A stretch of DNA of 63,382 nt, the filler included, from an uncultured bacterium (GTDB lineage Bacteria > CAZSTA01), in NCBI GenBank assembly GCA_964609495.1. It is 23 parts of 23 records of this genome, joined end to end, with 100 filler letters (N's around TTAATTAATTAA, not from the genome) between each part and the next. Parts side by side here need not be neighbours in the genome. Positions count along the whole stretch, not along the records: positions 58,363 to 60,823 come from CAZSTA010000310.1; 22 more parts are not named here. One strand, written 5' to 3'. This document shows positions 58,263-60,929 of this stretch, one piece after another. The position numbers were made by a program, and so were the translations under genes. The first letter of the stretch is position 1. Each line of letters opens with the position of its first letter. Under the pieces are notes generated by a model that saw only the letters and a program-made list of their open reading frames with translations, was not told the origin of the DNA and did not search any database.

Positions 58263-58362
58263 NNNNNNNNNNNNNNNNNNNNNNNNNNNNNNNNNNNNNN
58301 NNNNNNTTAATTAATTAANNNNNNNNNNNNNNNNNNNNNNNNNNNNNNNNNNNNNNNNNNNN

Positions 58363-58407
58363 ATGGGGGGCTAGTGGTCGCTGGTTCAAATCCAGTCGCC
58401 CCGACCA
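58363..58407 (+). tRNA. tRNA-Pro(GGG), 3' part (5' end lost at contig edge)
   Basis: Loop AT-GGG-GG, GCTAG 3' anticodon arm, GGTTCAAATCC, CGCCCCGACCA. Confidence 0.8.
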
Positions 58408-58462
58408 TTTCTATGCCCTTAATAGCATTTATTCATTGGCTAATGAAATCAGGAACATATAA

Positions 58463-58620
58463 GTGAAAATTCGTATCGATCTCTAACCTTAGAACGTGCG
58501 GAAGAACGAGGCGCAAATGAAGAAGAGATTAAGGATGTCATAGAGACAGGCTTCCTTATAGAAGCGAAGTATAGTCGGTTTGGGAAAGCAAAGGTCTTTC
58601 CCTTCAAATGGGAGGGGTAA
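58463..58620 (+). pseudogene. DUF4258 (BrnT-like) toxin pseudogene
   Basis: GTG-KIRID then 1-nt frameshift with stop at 58484; TLERAEERGANEEEIKDVIETG..KVFPF joined directly to KWEG*, implying an internal deletion. Confidence 0.7.
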
Positions 58621-58829
58621 AGATTAAGGTTTACTATAATGATAAAACCGATTTGCTTTATATCAGGTTCGATGAGCGAAAACAGCAAGTTGTGAACAAA
58701 AGGGTCGCCGAGGATATTGTTCTTGACATTGGGGATAAAGATAGAATAATTGGGATTGAAATTTTAGATGCTTCAAAGCATGTGAATCTTGAAGCTCTAT
58801 TGCCGATTCATTACGAATTACAGAAATAA
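58608..58829 (+). CDS. DUF2283 family protein (putative antitoxin)
   Basis: KVYYNDKTDLLYIRF..DIVLD..IIGIEILDASK. Confidence 0.9.
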   Translation: MGGVKIKVYYNDKTDLLYIRFDERKQQVVNKRVAEDIVLDIGDKDRIIGIEILDASKHVNLEALLPIHYELQK

Positions 58830-58886
58830 AGGTTTTTCACTGGCTACAGTAAACACGGACTTGGCGGTTTCGATGCTTCGCACCTT

Positions 58887-58903
58887 TCCAGTCGCCTCGA
58901 CCA
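58887..58903 (+). repeat. copy of tRNA-Pro 3' end (att-like)
   Basis: TCCAGTCGCCTCGACCA, 16/17 identical to 58391-58407 and 59675-59691. Confidence 0.85.
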
Positions 58904-59016
58904 AATGACGATAACAAATTACAATTTTAGATCTCACCTAGAACTGGGCATAGATAAAGCTGAACATATTTTACACTATGAATGTTACTGCCATTGCTAA
59001 AAAGGAGGGATTTCTC

Positions 59017-59241
59017 ATGAGGCAGTTTAAAATTGTCATAGAGAAACATCCCGACGGTTATGTAGCATATCCATTAGGACTCAAAGGTGTTGTAGTCGGA
59101 CAGGGAGATACCTATGAAGAGGCACTTTCTGATGTAAAATCAGCGATTCGTTTTCATATTGAGACCTTTGGAAAGGAAGTATTAGAGGTAGAGCCACAAA
59201 TTATTGAGGCTTTTGTTGCCGAAGCAAGAGTAGAAGTTTGA
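59017..59241 (+). CDS. hicB: HicB family antitoxin
   Basis: IVIEKHPDGYVAYP..VVGQGDTYEEAL..AI.FHIE; RBS AAGGAGG. Confidence 0.88.
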   Translation: MRQFKIVIEKHPDGYVAYPLGLKGVVVGQGDTYEEALSDVKSAIRFHIETFGKEVLEVEPQIIEAFVAEARVEV

Positions 59242-59283
59242 TGACAAAGTTTCCTGTTAATGCATCCAAGCGAAAGGTAGTAA
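59241..59283 (+). pseudogene. HicA toxin remnant (first ~14 codons)
   Basis: TGATG coupling to hicB; MTKFPVNASKRKVV resembles HicA N-termini, then similarity ends and a stop follows at 59325. Confidence 0.6.
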
Positions 59284-59316
59284 ATAGGAAGAACGGAAGA
59301 AAGGGGGGCATAGACT

Positions 59317-59505
59317 ATGAGATATAGAGTTTTGATTGAGCAGGATGAGGGAGGGATGTTTGTTGCTGAATGTCCTTCTTTACCAGGATGTATTTCTCAG
59401 GGCAAGACTCGGAAAGAGGCTCTCGAGAACATTCAAGACGCTATTAAAGGCTACTTAGAAAGCCTCAAGAAGCATAATGCTGATTTGGTTAAGGACGAGG
59501 ATTAA
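59317..59505 (+). CDS. hicB: HicB family antitoxin (orphan)
   Basis: YRVLIEQDEGGMFVAECPSLPGCISQGKTRKEALENIQDAI. Confidence 0.92.
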   Translation: MRYRVLIEQDEGGMFVAECPSLPGCISQGKTRKEALENIQDAIKGYLESLKKHNADLVKDED

Positions 59506-59559
59506 GTTCCCGTTAACGGTGTTTCAAGATAGGCCTGAGCAGTATTCAGTAATTGCGAT

Positions 59560-59592
59560 CATTTCTATGCCATCAATAGCATTTACCCATTG
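59560..59592 (+). repeat. direct repeat of the sequence at the end of and following tRNA-Pro(GGG)
   Basis: 29/33 identical to 58406-58438; preceded by a decayed tRNA 3' end (ATTCAGT....CGATCA). Confidence 0.85.
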
Positions 59593-59614
59593 TAATTGAA
59601 TATAAATGTTAGGT

Positions 59615-59691
59615 CGGGGCGTGGCGCAGTCTGGTAGCGCACCAGCTTCGGGAGCTGGGAGTCGCTGGTTCAAATCCAGTCGCCCCGACCA
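59615..59691 (+). tRNA. tRNA-Pro(CGG)
   Basis: CGGGGCG/CGCCCCG acceptor stem, CCAGC-TT-CGG-GA-GCTGG anticodon arm, encoded CCA. Confidence 0.97.
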
Positions 59692-59706
59692 ATTCTATGT
59701 AATAAG

Positions 59707-60823
59707 GTGAAAAAAATGGAAAATAAAATCGAATTGGCTTACTATGGAAAAGAATCTGAGGAAAAAATCCTGAAAGGAGAATTTCCTGCTACTTTTAAGG
59801 AGATCAAATCTTCTGGTATTTTAAGGTTAGACGGTTGGCAAAATATGCTCATCTTAGGGGACAATCGGGCAGTGCTTAGACTTCTCCTTCAAAACCAATC
59901 AATTAAGGGAGAGGTAAGATTAGTTTATATAGATCCACCGTTCTCAACAAATCAAGTATATAAGGGTGGTAAAGATAGGACTGCTACAGTAAGTAGAAGT
60001 GAGGAGGATACTACGGTATATGAGGATACTCTTATAGGCTCAGAATATCTCGAGTTTTTAAGGAGAAGACTTATCCTCCTAAGAGAAATATTAGCGGATG
60101 ATAGCTCTATATATGTTCATATTGACTGGAAAATGGGACATTATGTGAAGGTTCTTATGGACGAAATATTTGGTCAAGAGAGGTTCATAAACGATATAAC
60201 CAGGGTCAAATGCAACCCTAAAAATTTTAAGAGAAGAGCTTACGGAAATATTAAAGATATGATTCTGTTCTATTCTAAAACAGATAGTTATGTTTGGAAT
60301 GACCCTCAAGAAGAGCTAACAGAAGAGGATATAAAGAGGCTGTTCCCGAAAATTGATAAGAATGGAAGAAGATATACGACAACGCCTTTACATGCTCCCG
60401 GAGAAACTAAAAATGGTCCTACTGGAAAACCATGGAGGGGTAATAAGCCGCCTAAAGGAAGACACTGGAGATACCCTCCCGATAAGTTGGAGAGGTTGGA
60501 TAATCTAGGATTAATTGAGTGGTCATCAACAGGGAATCCTAGAAAGAAGATCTATGCGGATGAAGCCTTAGCGAGAGGGAAAAAATTACAAGATATCTGG
60601 GAGTTTAAAGACTCTCCTTATCCTACATATCCTACGGAAAAGAACCTAGATATGTTAAAAATGATTGTAGAGGCTTCATCCAATCCAGATGATATAGTTT
60701 TAGATTGTTTCTCTGGATCAGGAACTACCCTCGTAGCGGCAGAATTGATGGGAAGAAAATGGATAGGTGTAGATAATTCTCCTGCGGCTATTGAGATCGC
60801 TCAGAAAAGATTGAATTCAATAA
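59707..60823 (+). CDS. beta-class amino (N6-adenine/N4-cytosine) DNA methyltransferase (3' truncated)
   Basis: Motif IV YIDPPF precedes motif I DCFSGSGTT; YPTEK; true start may be the ATG at 59716. Confidence 0.95.
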
Positions 60824-60929
60824 NNNNNNNNNNNNNNNNNNNNNNNNNNNNNNNNNNNNNNNNNNNNTTAATTAATTAANNNNNNNNNNNNNNNNNNNNN
60901 NNNNNNNNNNNNNNNNNNNNNNNCTATAT

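Follow-up and report, generated by a model that had tools for sequence, protein, structure and literature searches.

Copies of a tRNA-Pro 3' end and toxin-antitoxin remnants as probable scars of past integrations in an uncultured salt-marsh bacterium

The window analysed here is a stretch of 63,382 nucleotides, composed of 23 unrelated small contigs (C287-C311, size-ordered) from the 349-contig, 3.78-Mb metagenome-assembled genome (MAG) of an uncultured salt-marsh bacterium (GenBank assembly GCA_964609495.1), and our subject is a 1.2-kb interval within it that lies between two proline tRNA genes, tRNA-Pro(GGG) and tRNA-Pro(CGG), and holds the remnants of three toxin-antitoxin (TA) modules. We propose, as the probable reading, that elements integrated site-specifically into the tRNA-Pro(GGG) 3' end on two or more occasions, accreting in tandem, and that deletion then wore them down to the fossil scars seen in this interval, in the manner of cis-mobilizable elements (CIMEs). 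The locus lies entirely on contig C310 (window positions 58363-60823, 2461 bp). Contigs are joined in the window by artificial N44-TTAATTAATTAA-N44 linkers (e.g., 58263-58362 and 60824-60923), adjacency across a linker is not genomic, and the sequence before 58363 is unrelated to the locus.

The proposal starts from a 17-mer, TCCAGTCGCCCCGACCA, which comprises the last T-loop base, the 3' strand of the T-stem, the 3' strand of the acceptor stem, the discriminator base, and CCA. It closes both tRNA-Pro genes without mismatch (copy A being the end of tRNA-Pro(GGG)) and recurs inside the interval with 16 of its 17 bases (copy B), as an earlier note made from the sequence alone had reported and as a mismatch search with shuffled controls confirms: three matches with at most 3 mismatches occur in the window against 0.09 expected, and 0 of 100 shuffles reach three. 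Across the 3.78-Mb assembly, the search at the same threshold returns eight matches. Four of them are at 0-1 mismatch: three belong to C310, and the fourth is the tRNA-Pro(GGG) end carried by contig C168 (the same sequence as copy A). The remaining four, each with 3 mismatches, fall on contigs unrelated to the locus. The wider hunt for copies that the earlier note had called for thus yielded none at 2 or fewer mismatches anywhere in the assembly outside the locus, and hence no second attachment site or attP-like copy.

In copy B, identity to the tRNA end breaks off sharply at the T-loop/T-stem border, and likeness to the tRNA body upstream of it is not above chance (17/60 and 15/60 positions in register; z of 0.33 and 0.99 against shuffles). 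Because the identity ends so abruptly and no tRNA body precedes it, copy B is not a decayed whole tRNA gene. A co-oriented, sharp-edged copy running from the T-stem to CCA, with low-GC foreign DNA before it, points instead to site-specific integration. The trailer that follows copy B is, on alignment, unlike the trailer that follows tRNA-Pro(CGG).

A second repeat marks the outer boundary of the interval. Its left copy (F') begins in the tail of tRNA-Pro(GGG) and its right copy (F) lies shortly before tRNA-Pro(CGG); over 37 nt the two are identical at 32 positions (86%), with an offset of 1154 nt and a blastn E of 2e-4 against the whole assembly, and a gapped alignment extends to about 40 nt of flank. 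The direct repeat after the first tRNA, originally described as 29/33, is therefore borne out in a longer form. The decayed 17-mer said to end near 59561 (copy C) stood only in part: its last 6 nt fall within the 37-nt repeat and share its significance, and beyond those 6 nt copy C, which matches at 10 of 17 bases, is indistinguishable from chance. Likeness to the tRNA body upstream of copy C is likewise not above chance (18/60 and 15/60 in register; z of 0.56 and 0.04). Copies A and B are spaced 496 nt apart and copies B and C 658 nt, in agreement with the segments of ~500 and ~660 bp first described. The coordinates of all features are collected in Table 1.

Table 1. Features of the tRNA-Pro locus, in window coordinates
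Feature	Positions	Strand	Remarks
tRNA-Pro(GGG), last 45 nt	58363..58407	+	whole gene at C168:8203-8279, at contig end
17-mer copy A (end of tRNA-Pro(GGG))	58391..58407	+	0 mismatches
37-nt flank repeat, left copy F'	58402..58438	+	6 nt of tRNA tail and 31 nt of trailer
DUF4258-type toxin pseudogene	58447..58620	+	PF14076, E 0.0015, below cut-off; without start codon
DUF2283 antitoxin-type gene, intact, 73 aa	58608..58829	+	PF10049, 9.6e-13, above cut-off
Copy B, tRNA-Pro 3' end, 16/17, putative fossil attR	58887..58903	+	sharp edges, flanks dissimilar, tRNA-oriented
hicB1 upstream leader	58963..59016	+	DNA homology to relatives from 58963 at earliest, ~60 nt past copy B
hicB1, HicB-like antitoxin, intact, 74 aa	59017..59241	+	Pfam 0.0075, below cut-off; relatives at 73-92% aa
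hicA1 remnant, first 14 codons (of ~79)	59241..59284	+	open frame continues in unrelated sequence to 59327
hicB2, second, different HicB-like antitoxin, 62 aa	59317..59505	+	PF15919, 7.8e-10, above cut-off
Possible hicA2 remnant, ~8 codons then stop	59506..59532	+	weak, by eye
Copy C, supposed decayed 17-mer	59545..59561	+	10/17; last 6 nt in significant repeat
37-nt flank repeat, right copy F	59556..59592	+	ends 22 nt before tRNA-Pro(CGG)
tRNA-Pro(CGG), complete	59615..59691	+	ARAGORN; Rfam tRNA 64.8 bits; 17-mer end at 59675-59691
N6/N4 DNA methylase gene	59707..60823	+	PF01555, 3.6e-47; GC 37.7%; cut by contig end

The weight of these repeats depends on the soundness of the assembly. The first base of C310, 58363, falls inside tRNA-Pro(GGG), in its anticodon loop, which is why ARAGORN calls only tRNA-Pro(CGG) at the locus and nothing at 58363-58407. 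C168 closes with the same 55 nt with which C310 opens, without a mismatch, and this 55-mer is unique to the ends of those two contigs; with no competing contig end, the overlap places C310 physically after C168. Contig ends in this assembly overlap by 55 nt more often than by any other length (18 cases in the first 80 contigs), and we therefore take the assembler to have worked at k = 55. Contig C46 probably comes next after C310, its first 53 nt matching the end of C310 at 50 of 53 positions, and the three differences lead us to conclude that the MAG contains a mixture of strains.

Logan contigs from four salt-marsh runs (X1, X2, X3, and X5, of 16 runs listed), in which the organism has a depth of ~2-5x, were compared with the locus. 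Those of three runs cover 58379-58844, from the tRNA end into the first segment, with 0 differences; 58436-58952, spanning copy B; 58892-59114; 59109-59424, over the junction between hicA and hicB2; 59390-59540; and 59684-60177, from the end of tRNA-Pro(CGG) into the methylase gene. No joint, empty site, or circular junction was reported for the contigs of the four runs, among which no listed piece spans 59540-59610, and at a depth of ~2-5x rare variants are beyond reach. An assembly artefact, in which the repeats would be mis-joined tRNA reads in a fragmented and strain-mixed MAG, could appeal to the 349 contigs and 4.26% contamination, to the start of C310 within a tRNA, and to the 3 of 53 nt that differ between the end of C310 and the start of C46. 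Yet every repeat is shorter than k = 55, the Logan contigs bridge the locus piecewise, crossing the tRNA end, copy B, and the stretch 59109-59424, and the 55-mer overlap is confined to C168 and C310, so that the misassembly of tRNA reads, which the earlier note had named as a possible refutation, is very unlikely.

The genes of the interval are all TA-derived, as Pfam searches of its open reading frames (ORFs) confirm in keeping with the earlier claim that it holds nothing else, and they form three remnants, DUF4258/DUF2283, hicB1-hicA, and hicB2. Segment 1 (58408-58886) carries the first of these, a pseudogene of the DUF4258 toxin type followed by an intact DUF2283 antitoxin-type gene. Relatives of the DUF2283 gene at 60-72% identity occupy 10 loci in 9 other genomes out of 400 searched, and none was found in the viral contigs searched for them. 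A DUF4258-like toxin ORF of at least 77 aa stands upstream at 10 of 25 DUF2283-relative loci, and the closest such partners are 87 aa long and start MEIQ.D.HTLERAEERG. When the translations are read by eye, the copy in segment 1 has the His of the HTLERAEERG motif replaced, and about 38 codons are absent between its ...GKAKV and GKWEG blocks.

Segment 2 (58904-59544) holds the two Hic modules. Relatives of hicB1 at 73-92% amino acid identity were kept at 80 loci (L103-L182), which the record titles assign to Planctomycetota, Cloacimonadota, Gemmatimonadota, Chloroflexota, Nitrospirota, Desulfobacterota, and the archaeal Methanosarcinales; judged by this spread of hicB1 across many phyla and archaea, the cargo is of a horizontally travelling kind. 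In the first 25 of these loci a HicA of 79-80 aa follows hicB in 16 cases. At the DNA level, none of 72 alignments between the window and the hicB1-relative loci extends beyond 59285, and 24 of the 72 stop at 59284; since homology never passes this point, hicA1 is cut after 14 codons. The start of hicB2 lies 32 nt past the cut, and its relatives are 68-70 aa long, with a HicA of ~74 aa following in 9 of 29. No repeat separates the hicB1 and hicB2 modules, and the two have been joined by deletion.

In all three modules the antitoxin is kept and the toxin, judged from the translations of its stump, appears destroyed, the case of hicA2 being a weak one; no intact cognate toxin gene stands beside any of the antitoxins in the interval. 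A search of the interval for promoters and terminators did not exceed chance, with 3 promoter-like sites where 2.9 are expected and no terminator. TA modules are known to be addictive, and the survival of antitoxins alone would fit this nature, a link that we infer for the locus; it would also fit the idea of deletions tolerated only if they spared the antitoxin or came after the loss of the toxin. TA modules have been proposed to oppose the deletion of surrounding DNA, and orphan or chromosomal antitoxins may guard against related toxins (PMC2654758).

Among 2430 pairs of hicBA relatives, DNA homology is limited to the coding block, beginning on the left no more than ~20 nt from the start of hicB and stopping on the right at ~450-466 nt, and no hicBA carrier with defined ends is visible. 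Run X3 contains a hicB-hicA pair ~88% DNA-identical to 59041-59284, in a far more abundant organism (depth ~90 vs 2-5), whose hicA runs on past the point at which the window copy is cut. At one locus of the Pirellulales (L110), a hicB1 relative is followed by a 107-aa ORF that is not hicA and that looks, by eye, like the DUF4258 type, an arrangement that suggests partner swapping between the two TA families of the interval.

The composition of the two segments sets them apart from their surroundings: their GC content is 38.6% and 40.2%, while the genome has 43.9%, C168 45.7%, and C46 44.7%. The locus is flanked by genes of housekeeping type: der/EngA, confirmed by Pfam, stands on C168 directly upstream of tRNA-Pro(GGG), on a contig where we take further ORFs, from our own reading rather than from profiles, to be cmk, plsC, ispH, and rpsA; downstream, C46 holds the final codons of the methylase gene (C46:1-140) and then, by Pfam, a FAD-dependent protein. 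The methylase gene itself, which begins 15 nt after tRNA-Pro(CGG), has no restriction partner among the listed ORFs and no bounding repeat, and is probably more foreign DNA.

When an element integrates at a tRNA gene, it brings a new tRNA end with it, and the former end is shifted downstream. At this locus, an integrase-bearing element would have recombined in the T-arm or 3' end of tRNA-Pro(GGG), supplying a new tRNA end and pushing the old one downstream as a direct repeat, and at least two such integrations, either serial in place or imported as a pre-stacked composite, would have left copy B and the repeat at 59556. In the serial form, an element carrying the Hic modules would have integrated first, and its displaced end, beside the native trailer F, would have decayed afterwards. 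An element carrying DUF4258/DUF2283 would then have entered the restored tRNA, leaving copy B beside the left end of the first element. Deletions would finally have taken the integrases and nearly all the cargo, an intact antitoxin with a destroyed toxin being the state that can be safely kept. Repeated integrations later eroded to their TA genes, one of two origins offered in the earlier note, are therefore the better supported of its proposals, through the edge of copy B, the foreign GC content, and the three broken toxins, and we consider them the probable origin; the integrases that they call for went unseen.

Several results weigh against this reconstruction. Neither an integrase gene nor a fragment of one turned up on C168 (8.3 kb), C310, or the initial 9 kb of C46, so that the absence first noted for the interval extends to its neighbourhood. 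A search of the assembly for an integrase that might target tRNA-Pro, as the earlier note had advised, returned five recombinases, all on other contigs: four PF00589 tyrosine recombinases on C144, C150, C9, and C19, contigs on which there is no tRNA (those of C144 and C150 are presumably Xer-like, from our reading of their length and sequence), and one PF00239 serine recombinase on C208. No orthologous locus was found among 40 and then 400 genomes, all of which share with this one only the domain, and a metagenome scan anchored on der/EngA gave a best match of 56% identity, with a tRNA-Pro at 2 of the 80 loci kept and the synteny of der and tRNA lost. The two repeats also misfit one simple serial scheme, in that F', on the element side, resembles F, on the chromosome side; this likeness would call either for att identity reaching 31 nt beyond the tRNA or for import as a composite. 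The upstream arms of copies B and C are unlike (122 of 1000 shuffles reach their score), leaving no common element arm, and the segments, at 0.5 and 0.66 kb, are much smaller than any known autonomous element. We know of no related active element or integrase for this lineage.

The pairing of the two tRNA genes is itself found elsewhere. Of 40 unrelated genomes, 6 have tRNA-Pro(GGG) followed on the same strand by tRNA-Pro(CGG), 0.9-3.2 kb apart, and a seventh case is cut by a contig end, which makes the pair a conserved motif of gene order (loci L015-L021 in genomes G016, G015, G025, G022, G006, G040, and G032). Between the pair lie surE, pcm, and/or a gene for a FAD-dependent protein (SurE and PCMT confirmed by Pfam once, the others identified by eye), and an additional 17-mer copy is absent from all of these loci; in the present genome, surE and two pcm genes are located on other contigs. 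Because unrelated genomes have the pair with housekeeping genes between its members, we take the pair to be old and its TA content to be peculiar to this lineage.

Two near-identical tRNA genes side by side could also have generated the 37-nt repeat, and possibly the 17-mer copy, locally, by unequal crossing-over or slippage between the genes and their trailers and with no recombinase involved, much like the tRNA-linked repeats that follow tRNA operons in Escherichia coli, the TA modules entering illegitimately later. The exact 31-nt 3' stretch common to both tRNA-Pro genes and their similar trailers (TTTCTATG and ATTCTATG) would provide the material, and the 37-nt repeat does take in part of the trailer, a stretch that identity blocks at att sites can usually do without. 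Furthermore, relatives of hicB1, DUF2283, and hicB2 sit at non-tRNA sites, with a tRNA of any kind within 4 kb at 4 of 80 hicB1-relative loci and within 1.5 kb at 1 of 25 DUF2283-relative and 2 of 29 hicB2-relative loci, so that such modules can arrive without a tRNA-specific integrase. Copy B argues the other way, having neither trailer nor tRNA-body similarity beside it, a configuration that unequal crossing-over does not predict, and the units are low-GC foreign coding DNA, not structured non-coding spacer. Rfam searches of the interval at E up to 1 give only the tRNA and two sub-threshold unrelated matches, with no match of the RtT type. A purely local origin is, in our judgement, unlikely.

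Single 16/17 copies of other tRNA ends were also seen in this genome, for tRNA-Ser(GCT) (C98:11978-11994), tRNA-His (C23:2965-2981), and tRNA-Ala (C1:6490-6506); each sits off the contig of its tRNA, and we estimate the chance expectation at about one.

The interval might, finally, be alive, its segments being miniature CIMEs with att copies on which an integrase continues to act in trans, provided by an element missing from the bin or by a newly arriving one, with tRNA-Pro as a platform for orphan-antitoxin cassettes. The near-perfect copy B (16/17) would suit such use, and CIMEs without an integrase move in cis with their neighbours elsewhere (PMC5704250, PMC3146451). The place of the contig break would suit it as well: C168 and the 55-nt overlap stop (58417/58418) immediately ahead of the first mismatch between F' and F (TTTCTATGCC, followed by C or A), as they would if the assembly branched there to a variant without the 1154 bp. 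The sampled population may have included a structural variant in which tRNA-Pro(GGG) is joined straight to F, and the break would then be its trace; against such a variant, C310 runs on unbroken where the empty-site path would rejoin, and the Logan contigs show no joint. Binning of MAGs often drops mobile elements, and in some cells extra DNA, even an intact element, may lie unbinned between C168 and C310. Opposed to mobility are the absence from the assembly of both a cognate integrase and an attP-like 17-mer, the 14% divergence of the outer repeat, whose tRNA part is mismatched at 7 of 17 positions, the lack of any repeat between the hicB1 and hicB2 modules, and the scarcity of tRNA linkage among the relatives of the cassettes. 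We regard such living cassettes as very improbable.

An integron-like arrangement whose minimal cassettes are moved in trans, the other origin offered in the earlier note, found no support, as there is no nearby integrase, no second att site in the assembly, no inverted repeat at the segment ends, and no repeat between two of the three modules; the divergence of the outer repeat, the antitoxin relatives without tRNA linkage, and the hicBA relatives without visible carrier ends speak against it too. The boldest version, in which the segments would be the smallest cis-mobilisable elements yet seen, ~0.5-kb orphan-antitoxin units still exchanged at tRNA-Pro(GGG) by an integrase acting in trans, is a long shot. 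If it were true, the locus would be a shuffleable "anti-addiction" rack able to neutralise toxins brought in by plasmids and islands, and the contig break would be the trace of a subpopulation without the 1154-bp block.

Taken as fossil scars, the interval offers a compact example of the death of an element, in which att copies and antitoxin halves outlast all else, and in lineages without sequenced relatives such scars can be all that records earlier gene traffic at a tRNA hot spot. The locus itself raises no new question unless its segments can still be exchanged.

Several known systems resemble the interval in part. In the RtT repeats of tyrT in Escherichia coli, a copy of the tRNA tail and trailer is repeated downstream, and the units are non-coding, structured, and ~180 bp long. 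The units described here differ in being protein-coding foreign DNA and in having no RtT match in Rfam. With integrons, such as the Vibrio super-integron and its TA cassettes, the interval has in common a row of small co-oriented units, some of TA type, bounded by repeats (PMC2654758). Unlike integrons, it shows no IntI, no attI, and no imperfect inverted repeats of the attC type, its repeats being copies of a tRNA end: a profile search found no tyrosine recombinase that could be an IntI-type integrase on C168, C310, or C46, and the 8 inverted pairs in 58363-59800 (arms of 12-19 nt, mostly 98-1027 nt apart) form no hairpin at a segment end.

Tandem accretion behind a small RNA gene is better matched by two systems of islands. 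In Prochlorococcus tycheposons, a tRNA serves as a repeated landing site and newcomers push older elements outward, leaving partial tRNAs and degenerate remnants like those seen here; tycheposons are equipped with tyrosine recombinases and replication genes and have been shown to excise, whereas only scars are present here (bioRxiv 10.1101/2020.12.28.424599). The ssrA islands of Dehalococcoides likewise stand in tandem rows behind one small RNA gene, with an insertion point in the T-loop and ~20-bp direct repeats of the 3' end as their bounds, and for 15 of them, which have no integration module, it was proposed that they are either cis-mobilisable or fixed (PMC3146451). According to the same source, they differ from the present interval in a serine integrase gene that carries the repeat, in a size of many kb, in their rdhA cargo, and in a mobility recognised from strain comparisons (PMC3146451).

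As regards the traits that characterise CIMEs, integration and transfer genes are absent from the interval, and its att-like copies stand at 16/17 and, with a degenerate tRNA part, at 86%. The CIMEs described so far are, to our knowledge, far larger than segments of 0.5-0.66 kb. In those related to ICESt1 and ICESt3, an integrated element decays to an att-bounded unit without integrase or transfer genes and further elements accrete, the newest adjoining the target gene (PMC5704250); the interval is like them in its lack of integrase and transfer genes and in its tandem stacking, and unlike them in holding only antitoxin genes and toxin stumps, with one bounding repeat degenerate. The process itself is thus already well known, and what is particular to this locus is the reduction to units of 0.5-0.66 kb together with the pattern of antitoxins kept and toxins lost in three of three modules.

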